Shown here: positions 10,712 through 37,155 of the stretch, in pieces
How positions within the stretch are numbered: the first letter of the stretch is position 1
How the letters are laid out: every line of letters begins with the position of its first letter
Assembly: GCA_041821665.1 (NCBI GenBank)
Contig: JBGUDT010000003.1
Span: forward strand, 71,403-112,326
DNA length: 40,924 bases
DNA from: Anaerolineales bacterium
Lineage (GTDB): Bacteria > Chloroflexota > Anaerolineae > Anaerolineales > E44-bin32
Direction of reading: 5' to 3'
Made by a program: the position numbers and the translations under genes
Notes under the pieces: generated by a model
The model's database searches: none
Told to the model about the DNA's origin: nothing
What the model saw: only the letters and a program-made list of their open reading frames with translations

Positions 10712-12877
10712 CTAATCACCTTTTGGGGGGAGCGCAGGCATGTACATCTCCGTTACGTATTCCTTCACCATCCTCGTCATGCTGAACGAGGGTGCCAGCG
10801 TCCTAATGGTTTCTTTCATCCATCCAAGCCATTCTGCAGGCATGTCATCTGCGGAGCGATCGTAGTAAAGGGGGATGATTTCGTTTTCGAGTGTGGTATA
10901 AAGACTCTCCGCATCTGCATTGTCTTGCTCTTCCTCATTCTCATAGGTGCGGTCCTCGCCGATCGACCAGCCGTTCATTCCATTGAAGCCTTCTCGCCAC
11001 CATCCATCCAGCACAGAAAAATTCAAGACACCGTTGAGCGCTGCCTTCTGCCCCGATGTCCCTGAGGCTTCATTCGGACGCCGGGGCGTATTCAACCAGA
11101 CATCTACGCCTTGGAGCAGGTAGTGTGCGACGTTCATATCGTAGTCCTCGAGAAAAACTAATCTCCCGGCATTCTCGGAATTCTTCACGAATCGATAAAT
11201 CTCTTGGATCAGCTGTTTTCCGGGTTCATCGGCGGGATGAGCTTTCCCTGCGAAGATAATCTGCACCGGTCGATCCGGTCGACTGATGATGTTCAACAAT
11301 CGCTCCGGATCCTTGAAAATCAAATTTGCCCGCTTGTACGTCGCAAACCGGCGCGCAAACCCAATAGTGAGCGCATATGGATCCAGGAGCACGCCACTTG
11401 CGATGACCTGGACTGGATGAATATCGCCGGACTGCCACTGAAGTCTCGCTCGCTCACGCACATAGGCAACGAGTTTGCGTTTGAGATGCCTGCGAACTTC
11501 CCACAGCTCTTCATCCGGGATATCCTCCACGACTTCCCAGATTTCCGGATCATCCAGGTGCGCCATCCACTCTTCAGGGAAGTATTGCAGGAAGAGATGC
11601 TTCATTCGCCGTGCGAGCCAGGTAGGCGAATGGATGCCATTGGTCACATGACCAATGGGGACATCTTCCTCGCTCAGATTCGGCCAGAGGACCCCCCACA
11701 TTTTACGGGCGACTTCTCCATGAAGTTCCGAGACCCCATTGCGATAACGGGCCATCTTCATAGCAAGCGTGGACATGCTGAATGTTTCACCCCACGGATT
11801 ATTCTGTATTGCCAGTTGGATAAAAGATTCGCGGTCCAGGCCAAGTTGGGACCAATAACCGCTAAAGTACTTGTCCATCATCCATATTGGAAACTCATCG
11901 TGTCCAGCGGGTACGGGCGTGTGCGTGGTAAAAACCGTGGATGCTTTGATCTTGTCTTGCGCGTCCTCGAAGCTCATCCCCCCGGTGACGAGCTCACAAA
12001 TCCTCTCCAGCGTGAGGAATGCTGAATGGCCTTCATTCAGATGCCAGACCGCCGGATTGTAACCAAGCTCACGAAGTGCTCGAACACCGCCGATACCGAG
12101 AATAATCTCCTGGGATAGCCGCAGTTCAAGATCGCTTGTGTACAAACGAGCTGTCAGATTTCTATCCGCATTCTGGTTTTGATCTACGTTGCTATCCAAA
12201 AGGTAGAGGGGCACCCTGCCGACCTGTACGCGCCAGATACGAGCTTCGACCTGGCGCCCCGGGAGGTCTACAGTAACCGATAGGGGTTGATGGGACTGAT
12301 CAAGAACAGGCACCACGGGAAGATCTCCAAAGGAGAGGGGTTCATATAAGGCTTCCTGCCAGCCATTCTCCGAAATACGTTGCTTGAAATAACCTTGAGT
12401 GTAGAGAAAACCCACCGCAACAAGCGGGATATCCAGATCGCTGGCTTCCTTAAGATGGTCTCCCGAAAGGATGCCTAGTCCACCGGCATAAATTGGGAGT
12501 GTCTCATGGAGTCCAAATTCTGTTGAGAAGTACGCAATGGGTTGATTTAATCGATCCGGGTACTGAGTTGGGTACCACGAGTCCTTGACCTCGCTCATAT
12601 AACTATCGAAGGAATCGATCACATCATCATAGAATTCCAGGTAATACCGATCACGGGTAGCTTCTTTTAGACATGCCTCGTCAATAGTGCGCAGAAATTT
12701 AACTGGATTATGGGAGGTTGCCTCCCAGAGAATCGGATCGAGACGCTGGAAAACGTGGCTCGCGTCGCTGTTCCATGTCCACCACAGATTGTAAGCTAGG
12801 TTGGCGAGATGGCGCAGTCGATGGGGGAGTTTGAAATCATTCGGGGGAGCGTCAGGTTGTCTTCGTGATGCATTCAA
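10712..12877 (-). CDS. glgP: Alpha-glucan (glycogen) phosphorylase
   Basis: YAGGLGILSGD, LNEGH, FTTHTPVPAGHD, GFARRFATYKR, PLP-Lys motif EASGTSGQK. Confidence 0.95.
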   Translation of the reverse strand: MNASRRQPDAPPNDFKLPHRLRHLANLAYNLWWTWNSDASHVFQRLDPILWEATSHNPVKFLRTIDEACLKEATRDRYYLEFYDDVIDSFDSYMSEVKDSWYPTQYPDRLNQPIAYFSTEFGLHETLPIYAGGLGILSGDHLKEASDLDIPLVAVGFLYTQGYFKQRISENGWQEALYEPLSFGDLPVVPVLDQSHQPLSVTVDLPGRQVEARIWRVQVGRVPLYLLDSNVDQNQNADRNLTARLYTSDLELRLSQEIILGIGGVRALRELGYNPAVWHLNEGHSAFLTLERICELVTGGMSFEDAQDKIKASTVFTTHTPVPAGHDEFPIWMMDKYFSGYWSQLGLDRESFIQLAIQNNPWGETFSMSTLAMKMARYRNGVSELHGEVARKMWGVLWPNLSEEDVPIGHVTNGIHSPTWLARRMKHLFLQYFPEEWMAHLDDPEIWEVVEDIPDEELWEVRRHLKRKLVAYVRERARLQWQSGDIHPVQVIASGVLLDPYALTIGFARRFATYKRANLIFKDPERLLNIISRPDRPVQIIFAGKAHPADEPGKQLIQEIYRFVKNSENAGRLVFLEDYDMNVAHYLLQGVDVWLNTPRRPNEASGTSGQKAALNGVLNFSVLDGWWREGFNGMNGWSIGEDRTYENEEEQDNADAESLYTTLENEIIPLYYDRSADDMPAEWLGWMKETIRTLAPSFSMTRMVKEYVTEMYMPALPPKGD

Positions 12878-28637: not shown

Positions 28638-31052
28638 ATGCGTGACTTGTCGATCCCAGCCAATGGTGCATACTCACTCCGGTTGAGTGCAGATGCAAGG
28701 TTGTCTTCCACCGATTACCTCAATGATCAAATCTGGGAGCTTATTCTGGGTGACACAGAACCACCTTCAATGGCGCTCCAGACGAGCTATGGTCTGCGGG
28801 CAAAAAAAATGATGATCTTCCCAGGATTCAGCTGGGGGACAAAAAGTGTGACCAACCCTCAGCAATTTACAGAGCCTCCCGTGGTTCGAACTGCGCTGTC
28901 GAATTATGCACGTCTCACACTTAAACCCTTTGATGAGCTTGAAGTTACAGCTGAGTATTGGATCCCGGACTCACACACAGCTGCAGGTCGAATAACAGTC
29001 CATCACCTCGGGGATGAGCCACGTGAGTTGTTTCTTCGTCTATTCACTGTGCTGCAGCCAGATGAAAATGGTCGTGTCATGGGTGCGGCAAACCATGCAG
29101 GGGTAATTGTTCTCGAGGGGGCTACCGGGGGTTTGGCGCCCGTATTGTTCTTGAGCGGCGGGGCAACTGTGGTTCAAGCTGCCTACCCCGCCGTGGGCGT
29201 TCAACAAATATTCGCGCCTGGTGTTAGCCGATCATGGACCTGGGTGTTGGCTAGCGAATCCAACAAGGAACAATCGTTCCAAAGGTGCAAGGAAATAGTC
29301 GGGGGTTCCTGGGATTCGGAAATCGCACGGGTCAGCTTGAAGAATGGATCTCTCATAGATATCGAAACAGGAAATCCCGAATGGGACGCAGCTTTCTGGA
29401 TGTCTCAAAAAGCCGTCCTGGGGAGTTCCCTCAGCCCAACGAAATCGCTTCCCCATCCTTCACTCGTGCAAAGCAGAATACCAGATAAGGGCTTTTCTTC
29501 AACCCTTCATGGCGAGGATTATCCCTCATCCTGGAGCGGACAGACCGCACATGAAGTCTTTCTTCCGCTCATGAACATCATCCCAGTCGAGCCTGAGTTC
29601 GCAAAAGGGGTAATTAGAAATTTCATACACGTCCAGGAGATGAATGGCTCCATCGATTGGAAACCTGGATTAGGCGGCCAACGAAATGGCGCATTATGTA
29701 CACCATTTCTAGCCGAAATTGCCTGGAGAATTTATCAACATTCTGAAGATAGAGAATTCCTCCAGGAGGTTCATGATCCCATCTATAAATTTTTCAAAAC
29801 TTGGTTTACGCAGCGGCATGATCGCGATGGTGATGGATTTCCTGAGTGGGATCATTCCCTGCAGTCTGGTTACGACGACTGGCCTCTATTTGCCCGCTGG
29901 ACAACCTGGGGGTGTGGCTTGGATATCTCGACGGCCGAGACATCCGATCTGGGAGCCTATCTATTCAAGGAATGCAATTCCCTGGCAGCCATGGCGTCTG
30001 AGCTAGAAAAGCATGAGCATCTCGAATGGCTGAACGCTCGAGCGGACATCTTGAGGGAATCTATCGAGGCAAGCTGGGGTGATGAGAGCCATTGCTATCA
30101 ACATGTCGATCGCGATATTCACAATTCACCCCAAGGTGAGATGTTGGGACATGGCGAGGGAACATTTGATTTAGAACTTGACCGCACTTTTGAGAATCCC
30201 GTTCGTGTGTATCTAAGATTTCGAGGTGAGCGCGACGGTGCGAAATCGATGAAGGTCAATATCCATACACGCGGTCCAAGAGGGGGAAAGCGAGTTGAGC
30301 GCCTCACTGCGAAAATGCTGGCGTGGTATTGGGAACTAGGAACAGTCACATCCGCAGGGGGGATGCGCGTTATCGACCGAATTGAGATCCGTGGGGTACG
30401 TGACGATATACAAACAGAAATCTGGATAGCCGATTACGCTCGTAGGGATTTGTCCAATCTCCTGCCTCTTTGGGCGGGTATTCCGGATGATAAAAGAGCC
30501 GATCTCCTTGTTAAAAGGACACTTCTCGATCCAAAATCATTTTGGCGGATGCATGGTCTCCCCCGCAGCCCTGCGACGGACCCCGCCTATGTATCTGATC
30601 GTGAGGACGGTTCCGGGGGGGTATCGATACTCTGGAACTCGATGATCGGCGAGGGTTTGCTTGAATACGGATTTCACGCAGAAGCTGCCGAGTTAGTCAC
30701 TCGTCTGATGTCTTCTATCGTCCACCAGTTAAAAATGGGCCATAGCTTTCGCGAGAGATATGATCCTGATGGGCAGATTGGATATGGTGAACGTGATCAT
30801 CTGGCTGGGATTGCACCTCTGGACTTATTCCTCCGCTCCCTCGGTGTAAGATTAATATCGCCACGGAAGGTATGGGTGTGCGCAGCAAATCCCTATCCAT
30901 GGCCGGTTGCCGTCCGTTGGAGAGGTCTTGAAATTCTCTGTGAGTTCGATAAAACCATTGTTGTCTTTCCCGACGGGGGCGTGGTTGAAATTCGTGACAA
31001 CGAACCGACATTGGTTGAGCAGTTGGACGAAAGAATTCAACTGGGCGAATAA
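28638..31052 (+). CDS. (alpha/alpha)6 glycoside hydrolase (GH63/MGH1 or amylo-1,6-glucosidase-like)
   Basis: D.EFLQEV, RHDRDGDGFPEW, SGYDDWP, N.MIGEGLLEYG, FRERYDP. Confidence 0.75.
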   Translation: MRDLSIPANGAYSLRLSADARLSSTDYLNDQIWELILGDTEPPSMALQTSYGLRAKKMMIFPGFSWGTKSVTNPQQFTEPPVVRTALSNYARLTLKPFDELEVTAEYWIPDSHTAAGRITVHHLGDEPRELFLRLFTVLQPDENGRVMGAANHAGVIVLEGATGGLAPVLFLSGGATVVQAAYPAVGVQQIFAPGVSRSWTWVLASESNKEQSFQRCKEIVGGSWDSEIARVSLKNGSLIDIETGNPEWDAAFWMSQKAVLGSSLSPTKSLPHPSLVQSRIPDKGFSSTLHGEDYPSSWSGQTAHEVFLPLMNIIPVEPEFAKGVIRNFIHVQEMNGSIDWKPGLGGQRNGALCTPFLAEIAWRIYQHSEDREFLQEVHDPIYKFFKTWFTQRHDRDGDGFPEWDHSLQSGYDDWPLFARWTTWGCGLDISTAETSDLGAYLFKECNSLAAMASELEKHEHLEWLNARADILRESIEASWGDESHCYQHVDRDIHNSPQGEMLGHGEGTFDLELDRTFENPVRVYLRFRGERDGAKSMKVNIHTRGPRGGKRVERLTAKMLAWYWELGTVTSAGGMRVIDRIEIRGVRDDIQTEIWIADYARRDLSNLLPLWAGIPDDKRADLLVKRTLLDPKSFWRMHGLPRSPATDPAYVSDREDGSGGVSILWNSMIGEGLLEYGFHAEAAELVTRLMSSIVHQLKMGHSFRERYDPDGQIGYGERDHLAGIAPLDLFLRSLGVRLISPRKVWVCAANPYPWPVAVRWRGLEILCEFDKTIVVFPDGGVVEIRDNEPTLVEQLDERIQLGE

Positions 31053-31343
31053 GTTTCGATTGAAAACGATGCAATTGATAGTGGACGAGTAGCCCCTCAT
31101 TATTGTGTTGGAGCAGATTAAGAGCAGATCATCCCACCTCCCCATCCATCCTCCTCCTAACAGGTACTCCCAGCGGCGAGATGATATATCCTAGAGCAAA
31201 CATCATTTCAAGAAAGTGAATCGGAGCGGGATGTCACAACACGTATTCATGCGCACCGATTATGAGAATAAGTCAGAATTCCTTGTTGTCTGCTGCACAG
31301 ATGAATGCCAAGTGGGGCATGGGGGTGGAAACCCCCATACGAA

Positions 31344-31380
31344 CTTTTTCCTTGGAAGATCTCCTGCGGGGTTCTTCACT
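31344..31380 (-). repeat. Intergenic repeat, copy 1
   Basis: Reverse complement AGTGAAGAACCCCGCAGGAGATCTTCCAAGGAAAAAG matches 36491-36527 at 36/37 positions. Confidence 0.9.
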
Positions 31381-31461
31381 CTATGCATCATGCCCTTTGG
31401 CATGTATCTAAGGTGAACCTGGCATTAAGATTGACGAAGCCCAAAAATAGCTTCAGGAACA

Positions 31462-32046
31462 TTATCGATCTAGTGGTTCTCGGCTGAAGCTTTCGACATT
31501 GTAAGTAAGAATCTCTAGCTCCTCGGAGCGCCAGGCGTCCTGGGGCAAATTTGCCTTGAGACATAATCTCGATAAAAAGTCTTCAGCGTCCTCAACTTTT
31601 TTCCATACCTGCGGCAGGAACGTCGCCCTTCGGACCCCTTTCTTCACGATGACGCCGTCGACCCCCGGCTTCAGGCGATTAAGTAGGTCTTCTGATGAGT
31701 TGTACAGCAATATCTCAGGGGTTGTGAGCACAGATACTTCTGTCTCAATCAGATCAATTTCTTCAAGAGTGACCGTCGGGAAGCGGGGGTCGCGCAGTGC
31801 AGCCGAGGAGGCGTTCTTGGTCACATCCTCGGCGAGTGGAAGCTTGGCTTCGATTGTCCCCATACAGCCGCGCAATTGCCCCCCGATGTTCAGAGTAACA
31901 AAAGATGCGCCGGGTTCAGTGAGTCGTGGTGGGAGAGCTGTATGATCAATGGAGGGTAGCGAACCTTCGCCAACAGAAGCCACGATTGCCGCATTGGCAA
32001 GGTTGAGCAAGATATCTCGTTCCTCTGAACGCAATCCTATGGACAT
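31462..32046 (-). CDS. amrA: AmmeMemoRadiSam system protein A (AMMECR1 domain)
   Basis: ASFVTL, LRGCMGT, DPRFP, EVSVLT, ATFLPQVW, LCLKA; start moved to MSIGLR. Confidence 0.9.
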   Translation of the reverse strand: MSIGLRSEERDILLNLANAAIVASVGEGSLPSIDHTALPPRLTEPGASFVTLNIGGQLRGCMGTIEAKLPLAEDVTKNASSAALRDPRFPTVTLEEIDLIETEVSVLTTPEILLYNSSEDLLNRLKPGVDGVIVKKGVRRATFLPQVWKKVEDAEDFLSRLCLKANLPQDAWRSEELEILTYNVESFSREPLDR

Positions 32047-32194
32047 ATCGTCATCTTCTAGGACACCAACGGTATCACTTGAAGTATAGCAGAGCGTGGT
32101 GATGGTTTCATTTGGTGGGTGTATGGAGAGAAATGTTGGATATTTCAAACTCGTGCATACGTTAAACCCTGAGCTAACAGGGGTTATTCACGAA

Positions 32195-33127
32195 TCATGA
32201 TATGTGAGTATTCGATATCGCAGCTAGTATGGCCGGAGCGAAATCGGTGAGATCTTTCAAATTCTTTGAAAATTGGTCACGGGCATCGGCTGGTCCCACA
32301 AGCAAGGCCGGAACGAGATTGCGGGTATGTCCACGGATGCTGAGATTTTCCATGTTCCCATGGTCCGATGTAAGCACGATGAGATCTTCCCGTTCCTCCC
32401 AGGCTTTGAGAAGACCTCCCAGCATATCGTCAAACGCCTCCAGCAAATCAACCGCATCCGCCATGGATCCCTTGTGCCCGGCGATATCACTGGGCCAGAA
32501 ATCGAACCATGTAAGGTCATACGCTTCCGAGATTTCAGCGAGCATCAAACCGGCTTCATGCGATTTATATACAGGCGCAGGGGGAAAATCTGGCTGAGCG
32601 ACCCATCCCTCCCCGGTGAAATCCACGGACATGGCTCTTCCTTCTTGTAAGTCTTCCGCGGTCATGAGATCGATTCCTGCCGCAGTGACGGCAAGCGGGA
32701 TTGCCGAGTACAGCCGCCGACCAGAATCAATCATTTCAAAATAGCGTGGCGGGTAAGCATTGAGTAGAGCGGCCTTACCACCTTGCTTGGTGACGGCGTC
32801 AAAAATGTTCGATTCCTTGAGAATGGAAGCGATGGGGGGATTTGGTTTTGGACCGTAATGTCCCCCGGTCTCTGCAGGAACGTTGCGACCGGTGAGAAGC
32901 GCTGCCTGACCAGATGCTGATTGCGGAGCACCGTCGACTCCTAGGCATGCGTCCACACCCAGCAATGTCGCTTGGGCGCCATCGTAGGGTACAGATTCCA
33001 TGGTGACAGTCCTGCCCTCAAGGATACCTTTGAGATTGGGCATTCTCGCCACGGCGAAAGGATTATGCGCAGAATCTTTCGGACCCAGACCGATGCCATC
33101 GATGAAGAGGAAAAGCACCCGTGTCAT
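32195..33127 (-). CDS. Alkaline-phosphatase-superfamily metalloenzyme (phosphomutase-like)
   Basis: FIDGIG, PQSASGQ, DIAGH, TSDHGN, HTRN.VP; ATGA overlap with the upstream MTase. Confidence 0.85.
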   Translation of the reverse strand: MTRVLFLFIDGIGLGPKDSAHNPFAVARMPNLKGILEGRTVTMESVPYDGAQATLLGVDACLGVDGAPQSASGQAALLTGRNVPAETGGHYGPKPNPPIASILKESNIFDAVTKQGGKAALLNAYPPRYFEMIDSGRRLYSAIPLAVTAAGIDLMTAEDLQEGRAMSVDFTGEGWVAQPDFPPAPVYKSHEAGLMLAEISEAYDLTWFDFWPSDIAGHKGSMADAVDLLEAFDDMLGGLLKAWEEREDLIVLTSDHGNMENLSIRGHTRNLVPALLVGPADARDQFSKNLKDLTDFAPAILAAISNTHIS

Positions 33128-33687
33128 GCAGATTTCCGGGTGAATGTGAAGTATGCGGATTGTCTCGAACCATCCGTGCCGTGTTGTGTGGCAGTGAGGT
33201 CGAAGTCTAACGAGAATGTCTTCAGGATCTTATCCTCTGCGGGTATGCCGTCATCAGTGTTTGTTAGCCAGCTATAGAGCAGGTAGCTTCCACCAGGATG
33301 CACAACGCGCGAGATGGAGTTTTTATATTCCACTCTCTTATCCTCGTCGAGGTTATGAAAACAACCGATATCAAGGGCAAGATCAAAAGGCCCCGTGATC
33401 CCTTCGAGCCGGCTGACATCACCACGCTGCAAGTTCACGCTCACGCCTGCGGCTTTCGTTTTTTGTCTCGCCTGTCGGATGGCAAGGTAGGAGACATCGA
33501 TGCCCATGACGTCCCAACCCCGACTTGCAATCGTAATCAGGTTAGTGCCGGTGCCGCAGCCGAGGTCGATCGCCCGACCGGCATGATGTTGATCAAGGTG
33601 TGCGATCAGCTCAGGTGGGGAGATACCCGTATCCCACCTGGGAGATCCGAGCAGGTATTGGAGTTCGAAAAGGGCTCGGGAAATCAC
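33124..33687 (-). CDS. Class I SAM methyltransferase (TPMT/thiol-MTase-like)
   Basis: PRWDTGISPPEL, DLGCGTG, GIDVS, DIGCFH; start set at GTG 33687, a GTGA overlap with the thioredoxin stop. Confidence 0.85.
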   Translation of the reverse strand: MISRALFELQYLLGSPRWDTGISPPELIAHLDQHHAGRAIDLGCGTGTNLITIASRGWDVMGIDVSYLAIRQARQKTKAAGVSVNLQRGDVSRLEGITGPFDLALDIGCFHNLDEDKRVEYKNSISRVVHPGGSYLLYSWLTNTDDGIPAEDKILKTFSLDFDLTATQHGTDGSRQSAYFTFTRKSA

Positions 33688-34169
33688 TTCAGAGTTTCCA
33701 TGGTTTGACGCACGCGCTCGGGATCGACAGCCCCTGTCGTCTGCCATAGTTCCTCACCGGCGCCATCAATGAAAACGAACGTGGGTGTGTATTGGAAACC
33801 ATATTCTTTCATGAGATCGCGATTTTGCTCATCCTGCACATTGAGGTGGAGTATCAGGAGTTCGTTCTGAAACTCGATTTCCAGCCCATCCACGATGGGC
33901 TTTGCGGCCATACATGCCATTCAATATGGGCTTTGAAATTCGATGAGGATCGGCGTCCCGCTGCCAATTAACTCTCCGGGTGTCTCGTCATCTGAAAGTG
34001 TGGAGTCACCAGGATTGAACAGAATAATTGCAACGGCGACCCCGAGAAGAAGCGCAGCCAGGGCAATGAGCTCTCGCTGCCCCAGACCATTTCGCAAGAA
34101 GTAAACGAGCAAAACGAAGAATATGATGATGGCCATCAAGGCGAAGGAGTACTGATTGATGAATTGCAT
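33684..34169 (-). CDS. Membrane-anchored thioredoxin-fold protein with in-frame UGA (probable selenoprotein, UxxC)
   Basis: ORFs 33921..34169 and 33684..33920 are contiguous and in frame: ILIEFQSPY-(TGA)-MACMAAKPIV...YTPTFVF; two N-terminal TM helices; RBS GAGG before ATG 34169. Confidence 0.85.
33881..33907 (-). promoter_or_regulatory. Putative bacterial SECIS element
   Basis: Perfect stem AGCCCATC-GTG-GATGGGCT starting 20 nt after the UGA; G-initiated loop ~27 nt downstream. Confidence 0.7.
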
Positions 34170-34192
34170 CGTAACCTCACGAGCTTTACATG

Positions 34193-34201
34193 ATTCTATC
34201 A
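34193..34201 (-). promoter_or_regulatory. Extended -10 promoter of the thioredoxin operon
   Basis: TG-A-TAGAAT about 24 nt upstream of the ATG. Confidence 0.5.
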
Positions 34202-34277
34202 CCTTCCAAACCCTTGCCAGCGAAGAGGGTGAGAGTGAAGAAAATGTATTAAAATGTAATCGATTAAGTGAAAGTCT

Positions 34278-34306
34278 TTGACAAGGACCACCTCCTCCTT
34301 TACAAT
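34278..34306 (+). promoter_or_regulatory. Sigma70 promoter of EF-G2
   Basis: TTGACA-N17-TACAAT. Confidence 0.8.
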
Positions 34307-34344
34307 CGACAAATCTCAATTCACCAGCGAAGGATCCCCATTAA

Positions 34345-36420
34345 ATGAAAGAATACGCAACCGATTCGCTCCGCAACGTCGCGCTTGTATCCCACGGCGG
34401 TGCAGGAAAAACAATCTTGGGTGAAGCCATGCTCTTTTCGACAGGCGTCACCACAAGAATGGGTAAGATCGACGAAGGTAACACTGTATCCGATTTTGAA
34501 GACGAGGAAATCCGAAGGGATTTGTCCCTTTCAACGGCGATTCTCCCGGTAGAGTATCGTGATAAAAAGATCAATGTGCTCGACACGCCAGGCTACACTG
34601 ACTTTGTGGGCGAGGTTATCTCAGCATTAAGTGTCGCAGATGGCGCCATTGTCCTGGTCGAATCCGTAGCGGGGATCGAGGTCGGCACAGAGATCGTCTG
34701 GGAGTATTGCGATAAATTTAAACTTCCTCGTTTCGTGGTCATCAGTAAGTTAGATCGTGAGAACGCGAATTTCCAAGCGGTTCTAAATTCTTTGAGTCAA
34801 TTATCGGTGGACACTACATTCATTCCGGTCCAGCTGCCATTGGGCGAGAAGCAGGATTTCAAGGGTGTCATCGATTTGTTCAGTATGAAGGCTCGGCCTG
34901 GACAAGGTAAGGATGCAGAAGCCATCCCCGACGAGTACACCGATGTCGCCGAGGAGGCGCGTGTCAACCTCGTCGAAGCTGCGGCTGAAGGAGATGACGA
35001 CTTACTTGAAAAATATTTGAATGGTGATGAACTCTCCGCTCAGGAAGTGGCTGATGGCTTTAAATCTGCTGTACAGTCGGGACAGTTTGTGCCCGTGTTT
35101 GTGAATGCGGCTCATGATGCGACAGGTGTTTTCCCCCTACTGGATGCCATCGTCGATCTGATTCCGTCTCCCTCAGATGTAGCACCCATTGAAGCAGGAG
35201 GTGCATCGGGCACCGAAGAACTGGTGGCGTCCGATGCGGGTCCGCTGGCAGCCTATGTTTGGAAAACGACTGCTGATCCATATGTCGGGAAAATCACTTA
35301 CATGCGTGTGGTTTCTGGAACCTTATCATCGGACAGTCGTGTCTGGAACCACAGCCGGGACACCGAAGAACGATTCGGCACACTACACCTGATGCGGGGC
35401 AAGGAACAGCTTCCTGTTTCCACCTTGCATGCGGGGGATATCGGCATTATCGCGAAGTTAAGCGAGACCGAAACCGGGGATACGCTTGGGGATAAGGGAC
35501 ATCCCGTGACAATTACTCCTCCGGAGTATCCCAATGCGCTCTTCTCGGTGGCGGTCCATCCAAAGACTCAGGCAGATGCGACCAAGATCAGTCCATCATT
35601 GACGCGGCTTTCGGAAGAGGATCCTACGCTCTCGTGGCATCAGGAACCGAGCACGAACCAGACGATTCTCCAGGGCATGGGAGATCAACATATCGATGTG
35701 GCTATCCGAAAAGCAGAATCAAAGTTCCAGGTTGGTCTCACCACCGAAATTCCAAAAGTTCCCTATCGCGAGACAATTACCAAAGAAGGCCACGCCCAAT
35801 ATCGCCACAAGAAGCAGACCGGGGGCGCCGGGCAATTTGCCGAGGTGCACCTTACGGTCGAGCCGCTTGAGGATGAGGACTTCGAGTTTGTGAACAAAGT
35901 ATTCGGTGGATCCATATCACAGGGGTATATGCCCGCAATCGAGAAGGGTGTGCTTGGAGTGATGAAGCAGGGGGTTGTAGCCGGATACCCGCTTGAGAAT
36001 GTGCGTGTCCTCGTGACAGACGGCAAGGAGCATCCAGTAGACTCTAAGGCGGTCGCCTTTGAGACTGCTGGTCGGGAAGCTTTTAAATTGGCTGTAAGAC
36101 AGGCCTCACCGGTGATGTTGGAACCGATCATGGATTTACGCATAACTGTGCCGGAAGCAAACATGGGCGATGTCCTGGGAGATCTCAATACACGTCGGGC
36201 TCGGGTCCAGGGCATGGAAAGCGACCGTGGGAAGAGCGTGGTGACCGCCCAGGTGCCTATGGGGGAGATTCAGCGCTACACCACAGATATCCGATCAATG
36301 ACAGGAGGGCGAGGGTTGTTCTCCATGTCCCTCAGTCATTATGAGGTCGTACCTGCACATGTCACGGAAGCGATCATCGCCGCGAGAGATAAAGAACTCA
36401 GCAAGCAGGAAAGCGAATGA
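34345..36420 (+). CDS. fusA: Elongation factor G paralog (EF-G2 type)
   Basis: Full-length EF-G architecture (KKQTGGAGQFA, H.VDS, YTTDIRSMTGGRG); divergent G-domain (HGGAGKT, RDLSL, DTPGY, SKLD); not in the str operon. Confidence 0.93.
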   Translation: MKEYATDSLRNVALVSHGGAGKTILGEAMLFSTGVTTRMGKIDEGNTVSDFEDEEIRRDLSLSTAILPVEYRDKKINVLDTPGYTDFVGEVISALSVADGAIVLVESVAGIEVGTEIVWEYCDKFKLPRFVVISKLDRENANFQAVLNSLSQLSVDTTFIPVQLPLGEKQDFKGVIDLFSMKARPGQGKDAEAIPDEYTDVAEEARVNLVEAAAEGDDDLLEKYLNGDELSAQEVADGFKSAVQSGQFVPVFVNAAHDATGVFPLLDAIVDLIPSPSDVAPIEAGGASGTEELVASDAGPLAAYVWKTTADPYVGKITYMRVVSGTLSSDSRVWNHSRDTEERFGTLHLMRGKEQLPVSTLHAGDIGIIAKLSETETGDTLGDKGHPVTITPPEYPNALFSVAVHPKTQADATKISPSLTRLSEEDPTLSWHQEPSTNQTILQGMGDQHIDVAIRKAESKFQVGLTTEIPKVPYRETITKEGHAQYRHKKQTGGAGQFAEVHLTVEPLEDEDFEFVNKVFGGSISQGYMPAIEKGVLGVMKQGVVAGYPLENVRVLVTDGKEHPVDSKAVAFETAGREAFKLAVRQASPVMLEPIMDLRITVPEANMGDVLGDLNTRRARVQGMESDRGKSVVTAQVPMGEIQRYTTDIRSMTGGRGLFSMSLSHYEVVPAHVTEAIIAARDKELSKQESE

Positions 36421-36439
36421 CCTGCTAGAATTAATCAGT

Positions 36440-36471
36440 AGCGGGCCGGGATCACCGGCCCGTTTTTGTTT
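36440..36471 (+). terminator. Intrinsic terminator after EF-G2
   Basis: GCGGGCCGG-GATCA-CCGGCCCGT then TTTTGTTT. Confidence 0.85.
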
Positions 36472-36490
36472 CACAAATCTGAGAAATTCA

Positions 36491-36527
36491 AGTGAAGAAC
36501 CACGCAGGAGATCTTCCAAGGAAAAAG
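36491..36527 (+). repeat. Intergenic repeat, copy 2
   Basis: AGTGAAGAACCACGCAGGAGATCTTCCAAGGAAAAAG; see 31344-31380. Confidence 0.9.
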
Positions 36528-36614
36528 CCTATGGAGGTTGTCACGCTCAAAACCGCTTGCTATTCATTCCTGCAATGAGCTACAGGTTATTCTTGCTTTT
36601 TCCCATAAATAAGT

Positions 36615-36983
36615 ATGGTTGATCAATTTGAGCCCATCCGGTTCATTGCGGAGGAGATTGAGGTTCGCTATCGGGAAGGGCAGTCTCTTAGCAAAACCCC
36701 GGAACCGCCTGACGGGTTTCTCTGGAACGAAGAGGAATTCGTAGTGGTTGAAGTGCTGTCGGCTTGGACTGATTTTGAGCGCCGAGGCAGGATGAAGCGG
36801 AACATGAAACCACATAACTTTAGGGCGGCGGCACGTCGGGGTTCCTGGGGGGTGGGGCGTTTCTTCTTTCGGGTGCAAACTGAGGACAACCGTATCTTCG
36901 ACATCTATTACGACCGCGCGCCGGAGAATGCTTCCGATCGGAAAGGGCATTGGTTTCTATGGAGAGAAATGGCAGAGATCTGA
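36615..36983 (+). CDS. DUF6504-like protein
   Basis: P..F.W....F.V.EVL..W, FFRVQTED.RIFDIYYDR, WFL pattern; family recalled from memory. Confidence 0.7.
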   Translation: MVDQFEPIRFIAEEIEVRYREGQSLSKTPEPPDGFLWNEEEFVVVEVLSAWTDFERRGRMKRNMKPHNFRAAARRGSWGVGRFFFRVQTEDNRIFDIYYDRAPENASDRKGHWFLWREMAEI

Positions 36984-37155
36984 GCACAATCGGCATTCTA
37001 GTGTTTCTTGATGAACATCTTCCCAGATAATCTCTCGTTTCATACATTCAACCCATGAAGTAAATTACATGAAATCTATTAAAATACCTACCGAACCTAT
37101 TTTTGGTATGGGGGGGCGAATCGAAATTTCCAAGAAGGGAAATGAGTAAAATCAT

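Follow-up and report, generated by a model that had tools for sequence, protein, structure and literature searches.

A membrane-anchored thioredoxin-like protein encoded across an in-frame UGA in a marine-sediment Anaerolineales bacterium is very probably a selenoprotein

The DNA analysed here is a stretch of 40,924 nucleotides (called here the window) belonging to contig JBGUDT010000003.1 of a metagenome-assembled genome (MAG) of an Anaerolineales bacterium (Chloroflexota) from marine sediment, a draft of 190 contigs that is 84.65% complete. Between positions 34169 and 33684, its minus strand carries a gene that very probably encodes a selenoprotein, namely a membrane-anchored thioredoxin-like protein with an in-frame UGA at the first position of its redox motif. 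With a high degree of confidence, we interpret this region as one intact gene of 161 residues whose UGA at codon 83 is read as selenocysteine (Sec, U in motifs). This reading, already put forward in the initial annotation of the window, is supported by the pairing of Sec and Cys forms among relatives, by a hairpin that co-occurs with the UGA and shows compensatory changes, by the presence of selA, selB and selD in the genome, and by the predicted helices and fold of the protein.

Under genetic code table 11, the region is split into two open reading frames on the minus strand, 33921..34319 and 33684..33920, on either side of the TGA at 33923..33921. When this TGA is read through, translation from the ATG at 34169, which is preceded by a GAGG motif with 5 nt between them, proceeds over 161 codons and ends at a second TGA located at 33686..33684, the whole gene thus covering 33684..34169. 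The split, the length of the read-through product and the segments ILIEFQSPY-U-MAC-MAAKPIV and TPTFVF are those that the initial annotation had given. Around the UGA the protein reads GTPILIEFQSPY-U-MAC-MAAKPIVDGLE, and further on YTPTFVFIDG. A tblastn comparison with orthologs yielded an unbroken alignment from residue 1 to about residue 160. Used as query in a word-indexed protein search, the read-through protein returned four matches only, none of them named.

To establish what relatives carry at this position, two overlapping sets of genomes were used, the counts of which are not additive. The first came from 61 related genomes searched in all six frames, most of which gave a full-length match, and the 30 best loci were examined; the second came from a scan of one genome per species that yielded 228 relatives, almost all of them Anaerolineales, Anaerolineae or Chloroflexota MAGs, of which the best 80 were examined. 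In the first set, the column of codon 83 holds TGA in 23 loci and Cys in 7, within a near-invariant EFQSPY-[U/C]-x-x-C motif. In the second, TGA occupies it in 51 of the best 80 loci and Cys in the other 29. Both states are therefore found in one and the same alignment column, and the UGA (33921..33923, minus strand) stands at the first Cys of the thioredoxin CxxC motif, here U-M-A-C, as had been proposed. The resolving cysteine of this UxxC motif, Cys86 (33912..33914, minus strand), is invariant among the orthologs, and so are T128-P129-T130-F131, G138, E140 and D149. Since these residues lying past the TGA are conserved, translation must go on beyond codon 83. It should be mentioned that one Sec-form ortholog (L093) is found in a MAG labelled as a Methanosarcinales archaeon; its sequence clusters with Anaerolineales forms, and this assignment looks like a binning error.

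The second line of evidence is a hairpin located just downstream of the UGA. The sequence AGCCCAUC-GUG-GAUGGGCU (33883..33901, minus strand, loop 33893..33891), which encodes K-P-I-V-D-G-L, forms a perfect 8-bp stem closed by a 3-nt GUG loop, with a folding energy of -11.8 kcal/mol when folded alone. Its first base is the 20th nucleotide past the UGA and its loop begins 27 nt after it. This is the G-initiated hairpin that the initial annotation had noticed and taken for a bacterial selenocysteine insertion sequence (SECIS), and the comparison with published features agrees with that view. According to the Figure 2 legend of a 2026 review (PMC13188914), bacterial SECIS elements possess a loop of 3-9 nt and a stem of 4-16 bp; the review further gives a G in the first two loop positions, a spacing of 16-37 nt between UGA and loop, and a minimum free energy of -7.5 kcal/mol or below. 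The window hairpin lies within all four of these limits and its loop, read as C-GUG-G, fits the N1-G-[G|U]-N-N2 pattern. An Rfam scan of window positions 31000-37000 (E <= 0.1) gave no match, hence no curated RNA family overlies the hairpin or the intergenic repeats that flank the locus.

The 71-nt stretch around the hairpin folds no better than shuffled sequences (z = -0.85), and the case for the hairpin was for this reason built on comparison across relatives. We aligned 52 Sec rows (51 loci and the window) and 29 Cys rows, pairing statistics being computed on the 43 distinct Sec rows. The hairpin is kept in all 52 Sec forms, 43 of which retain all six core pairs and 9 of which retain five, whereas six pairs are retained in only 3 of the Cys rows, five in 2, and four or fewer in 24. 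Over the distinct Sec rows, 88.1% of the paired cells can pair, compared to 24-49% when the 3' arm is slid and to 50.5% in the Cys rows. The variation is compensatory at two pairs. At pair 28:36, 25 rows have A-U, 14 have G-C and 3 have G-U, an Ile-to-Val change being accompanied by the matching synonymous change from GAU to GAC, and at pair 27:37, 40 rows have C-G and 2 have U-A. The loop is a Val codon, for which 49 of the 52 Sec rows use GUG, 2 use GUU and 1 uses GUC, whereas the same codon in the Cys rows is GUG in 15, GUA in 9, GUC in 3, GUU in 1 and AUC in 1. As judged from this alignment, the preference for GUG in the Sec rows is a synonymous-site bias, as would be expected for an RNA signal.

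The protein obtained by read-through has a recognisable fold. Pfam models match residues 69-158 (33696..33965, minus strand) across the TGA, with Thioredoxin_2 (PF13098) at 39.4 bits for a cut-off of 27 and Thioredoxin (PF00085) at 38.8 bits for a cut-off of 23.5. An AlphaFold2 model built from 14 orthologs (mean predicted local distance difference test score, 84) shows two N-terminal helices, a low-confidence linker and then a thioredoxin fold of the beta-alpha-beta-alpha-beta-beta-alpha type. Foldseek comparison of the model to the PDB returned thioredoxins as all its top matches, with E values of about 1e-8 to 1e-7 and target-normalised TM-scores of 0.70-0.82. In the model, the redox dyad U83 and C86 is placed at the N-terminal end of the first long helix (residues 84-99), and the invariant T128-P129-T130-F131 loop occupies the place of the cis-proline loop opposite this dyad. 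A strand formed by residues 74-79 precedes the TGA and helix 84-99 follows it; because these two elements stand on opposite sides of the TGA, neither half of the gene would make a whole fold, in line with what had been suggested from the ORFs.

The two N-terminal helices, residues 8-27 (34089..34148, minus strand) and 31-51 (34017..34079, minus strand), are predicted to be transmembrane, the first on account of the AlphaFold2 helix and its hydrophobic sequence, the second on account of the AlphaFold2 helix; together with the thioredoxin fold, they uphold the earlier description of the product as a membrane-anchored thioredoxin. In 59 orthologs, Arg and Lys abound in the short loop that joins the helices (1.97 K+R versus 0.71 D+E per protein), the 15 residues past helix 2 show the reverse (1.37 K+R versus 2.34 D+E) and the N-terminal tail is practically devoid of charge. 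The positive-inside rule is well established for membrane proteins. Applied to this charge distribution, it places the inter-helix loop in the cytoplasm and the thioredoxin domain outward, so that this domain is probably located on the outer face of the membrane. A homolog of DsbD_TM/CcdA (53.8 bits) is encoded in the genome and could serve as electron donor.

Regarding the machinery for selenocysteine insertion, profile searches of the genome identified selA (553 bits), selB (321 bits) and selD (342 bits), all of them above their cut-offs. The selD gene (locus L001, contig C1:64278-65210, minus strand) is itself a selenoprotein gene with its own in-frame TGA (RCAG-U-ASK). This UGA is followed at 33 nt by a stem of 7 bp closed by a GUA triloop, an architecture like that of the window gene, and the selD hairpin is an internal positive control for the window hairpin. 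The Sec machinery anticipated by the initial annotation is thus present as far as selA, selB and selD are concerned, whereas selC was not found in the 84.65%-complete assembly.

This last result is one of several that weigh against our interpretation. With Rfam model RF01852, for which 150 of 366 candidates on the assembly were scored, the only matches were tRNA-Ser genes, ARAGORN detected no tRNA-Sec in the assembly, and a blastn search of the assembly with the tRNA-Sec of a congener gave no match. As to the hairpin, in addition to the folding of the 71-nt stretch mentioned above, five Cys forms retain five or six of the six core pairs, the element lies over conserved codons (P-I/V-V-D-G), so that its conservation is partly at the protein level, and the relatives compared are not independent of one another. 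The outward topology has the positive-inside rule as its single basis. Finally, one RNA library (X18) contains one 151-nt contig across the TGA and another (X19) two contigs; these contigs are short, carry-over of DNA is possible, and they were not counted as proof of transcription.

The failure to find tRNA-Sec has to be seen together with the state of the assembly, which also lacks tRNA-Trp and tRNA-Ile. A pattern search of the whole genome for the tRNA-Sec anticodon loop and T-arm gave chance matches only. By contrast with the present assembly, 11 of the 12 same-genus genomes searched contain a tRNA-Sec (69-75 bits). When the tRNA-Sec locus of a close congener is taken as reference, the sequences on either side of it align with the extreme ends of contigs C27 and C10 of the present genome, and a repeat of about 130 nt, present in dozens of copies in the genome, adjoins the missing part of this locus. 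As the syntenic flanks sit at these contig ends, the selC gene of this genome plausibly lies in the assembly gap between C27 and C10.

From these data, the following mechanism may be proposed. While the ribosome stands on UGA 83, the hairpin at 33901..33883, with its GU-containing apical loop inside the coding sequence, 27 nt downstream of the UGA, would recruit SelB carrying Sec-tRNA(Sec), and selenocysteine would be inserted. At the terminal TGA (33686..33684), which has no such hairpin, translation would end. The two N-terminal helices would tether a classical thioredoxin fold bearing a Sec83-x-x-Cys86 redox pair, and the product would be a membrane-tethered thiol-disulfide oxidoreductase in which Sec83 acts as the attacking nucleophile and Cys86 as the resolving residue. 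The domain would probably be held in the reduced state via a CcdA/DsbD-type transporter.

Another route to a full-length protein would be a Sec-independent read-through driven by the hairpin, a near-cognate tRNA (Trp or Cys) then giving a selenium-free product. Such a mechanism would accommodate the lack of a detected tRNA-Sec in this assembly, but it leaves aside that the UGA aligns only with Cys, and does so at a catalytic position, that the genome has selA, selB and a selD of the Sec type, that 11 of the 12 congeners searched have a tRNA-Sec, and that the hairpin fits a SelB-type consensus and resembles that of selD. We therefore hold it to be very unlikely.

It was also considered that the gene gives two separate products, an 82-residue membrane peptide and a soluble 78-residue C-terminal fragment obtained by re-initiation at the AUG that adjoins the UGA, as the initial annotation had speculated. 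This AUG does follow the UGA directly in the window, but re-initiation is not a conserved feature of the family, since the codon after the TGA is ATG in only 5 of the 52 Sec forms (CTG in 21, ATT in 10). The two halves moreover divide the beta sheet, leaving the C-terminal piece without one strand and without the first redox residue, and in the Cys forms one continuous gene of about 160 codons encodes the protein. Public gene calls do list the halves separately, as N-terminal pieces of 82-83 aa called 'hypothetical' and C-terminal pieces of 71-78 aa called 'thioredoxin family protein', next to unbroken entries of about 160 aa, which presumably correspond to Cys forms and in some cases are named 'thiol-disulfide isomerase/thioredoxin'. 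Such a division of the record into two fragments is the usual fate of selenoprotein genes, and the present reading corrects the annotation of a gene that is stored as two meaningless fragments in dozens of Anaerolineales genomes. A two-product gene appears to us slightly less probable still than read-through without selenium. Sec insertion competes with release factor 2, and for this reason some truncated by-product is still to be expected from a selenoprotein gene.

That the gene has decayed, or that it is a normal Cys thioredoxin gene in which faulty sequencing or assembly created the TGA, is hardly credible even though the source is a draft MAG in 190 contigs. The same TGA occurs in the 51 relatives described above, which were assembled independently and extend down to about 40% identity with their downstream part conserved, and the hairpin co-occurs with it. 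Two DNA runs, each from a different study, yielded contigs that span the site at 33921-33923. None of the 40 variants listed from four runs (18 more lie beyond this list) falls on these positions, although variants do occur close by, among them a synonymous change at 33927. The TGA is not an assembly error. The opposite picture, a genome devoid of Sec machinery and relatives having only TGC or TGT at this codon, was looked for and is not what was found. A genome-wide reassignment of TGA to a standard amino acid, as in lineages using code 4 or 25, has a negligible probability, nothing having been found in its favour, as TGA ends 306 of the 747 long frames of the genome and 8 of the 12 window genes, the selenoprotein gene included, none of the 11 other window genes nor selA, selB or EF-G contains an in-frame TGA, and elsewhere in the genome the codon acts as a normal stop.

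Returning to the selenoprotein reading, the distribution of Sec and Cys forms was placed on a quick maximum-likelihood tree of 81 rows, computed with the hairpin-coded columns included. Parsimony gives 11 changes between Sec and Cys on this tree, of which at least 3 are forced by well-supported branches. Three Cys forms (L087, L101 and L118) possess the full 6-bp hairpin. L087 and L118 share a starred clade with L104, which is a Sec form, and L101 clusters with two Cys forms (L062 and L070) that have both lost the hairpin. The hairpins retained in these three genes are read, from their sequences and placement, as probable relics of recent Sec-to-Cys conversion, a reading that is backed more directly by L087 and L118 than by L101. 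The marine-sediment Chloroflexota selenoproteome thereby gains a clean Sec/Cys family whose members are membrane-anchored and widely conserved. With a SECIS showing real compensatory changes and apparent relics of it in the few recently converted Cys forms, this family should be useful for studying how a SECIS is gained in and lost from a coding sequence, and also for benchmarking selenoprotein predictors.

Thioredoxin-fold selenoproteins with a UxxC motif have long been known, and the present gene adds a member to them; our knowledge of how bacterial selenoproteins work is unchanged by this result. A Sec-containing thioredoxin (PF00085, UxxC) is given as an experimentally verified bacterial selenoprotein in the 2026 review (PMC13188914, citing Kim et al. 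2015), and thioredoxin selenoproteins are among those counted in a survey of the Sargasso Sea (PMC1088965). The protein described here shares with Sec-containing thioredoxin its fold, the position of Sec as first residue of UxxC and a SECIS hairpin in the coding region just past the UGA. It differs by its two-helix membrane anchor and linker and by its family motif, Y-U-[MLIVG]-[AGSITVR]-C instead of the W-C-G-P-C of thioredoxin. It is not an ortholog of TrxA or TrxC, as the scores obtained (TIGR01068, 41.8 bits for a cut-off of 96.8; NF006898, 29 for 138; NF008229, 27.5 for 125) and its Y-U-M-A-C motif rule this out. The same review names a thiol:disulfide interchange selenoprotein family (PF13098, UxxC) that is 'predicted with high confidence'. 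Compared by description only, our protein resembles this family in having PF13098 as best Pfam match, a UxxC motif and a presumed function in thiol-disulfide exchange, whereas its Anaerolineales taxon, its two-helix anchor and its operon are specific to the present family.

A membrane-tethered thioredoxin-fold domain that is probably turned outward is also found in ResA, CcmG (DsbE), TlpA and the C-terminal domain of DsbD, where the motif is CxxC, and the CcdA/DsbD_TM homolog could supply electrons here as in the ResA/DsbD group. Unlike ResA and TlpA, the present protein has a hairpin of two helices instead of a single signal-anchor and a minimal fold without the ResA/TlpA insert, and, unlike in the ResA/CcmG setting, no cytochrome c maturation genes lie near its gene. 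Membership of the ResA, DsbE, DsbD and TsoB families was ruled out by the NCBIfam scores, which are 19.2, 13.4, 15.8 and 18.1 for cut-offs of 170, 123, 330 and 805, respectively; among the NCBIfam models specific for selenoproteins, this sub-threshold TsoB match was the only one obtained with the read-through protein. A literature search, which took in passages of PMC13188914, PMC1088965 and PMC13326102, returned no account of a two-helix-anchored thioredoxin selenoprotein from Anaerolineae, but the gene lists of BSepDB and deep-Sep, which lay outside this search, may well include one.

The same genome encodes a second candidate selenoprotein of thioredoxin type, with the motif FAYW-U-PTC (contig C44, about 12198-12790, minus strand, TGA at 12410..12408). 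It resembles the window protein in that the TGA is first in the motif (W-U-P-T-C) and in showing about 32% identity over the thioredoxin domain, and its hairpin, GCCCGU-CGUGC-ACGGGC, is found at the same distance past the UGA. Where the window protein has its two-helix anchor, this one has a signal peptide of lipoprotein type (…LVAAC) together with a long, acidic linker, and it belongs to another locus. Homologs of this second protein with one TGA occur in many relatives.

The genes surrounding the window selenoprotein gene form a conserved arrangement. Its terminal TGA shares 2 nt with the GTG start codon of the next gene in a 4-nt GTGA overlap (33684..33687, minus strand). This downstream gene (33124..33687, minus strand), probably co-transcribed, encodes a class I S-adenosylmethionine (SAM)-dependent methyltransferase (Methyltransf_25, 68.9 bits; TPMT, 41.7 bits). 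It is followed, with a 4-nt overlap, by a gene for a protein of the Metalloenzyme superfamily, phosphoglycerate-mutase- or phosphopentomutase-like (32195..33127, minus strand), and then by a gene for an AmmeMemoRadiSam system protein A. On the other side, a paralog of EF-G is encoded divergently (34345-36420, plus strand; NF009381, 890 bits; TIGR00484, 628 bits, below the cut-off of 659). This divergent EF-G gene is kept in all 30 related loci examined. In each of the 29 loci whose flanks were long enough, EF-G, the thioredoxin gene, the methyltransferase and the metalloenzyme stand in this order, whether the thioredoxin gene is a Sec or a Cys form. In 27 of them, the methyltransferase match opens inside the thioredoxin gene, 4 nt short of its end, and the conserved GTGA overlap accounts for the fact that all 30 orthologs examined end in TGA. 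The selenoprotein gene would thus head a conserved operon and be translationally coupled to the SAM methyltransferase through GTGA.

For the methyltransferase and the metalloenzyme, no NCBIfam model reached its cut-off, and the operon yields no functional name. Since the Pfam score for TPMT is under those of generic methyltransferase models, a link to selenium methylation is not claimed. A broader idea, to which we give a low probability, is that of a lineage-wide envelope selenoenzyme of Anaerolineae, whose Sec-bearing thioredoxin domain would be carried to the outer membrane face on a two-helix anchor, forming one module with the coupled TPMT/TehB-like methyltransferase to handle reactive chalcogen or thiol compounds. 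If this were true, selenium, tellurium or disulfide species, for example, might be reduced and then methylated, the protein would have a role separate from general disulfide exchange, and the repeated Sec-to-Cys switches would follow the supply of selenium in sediments.

Outside these genes, the repeat of about 130 nt encountered at the tRNA-Sec locus has two intergenic copies in the window, at 31260-31380 (minus strand) and 36490-36609 (plus strand). They lie in opposite orientation and bracket the operon and the EF-G gene; the repeat is also found in a congener.

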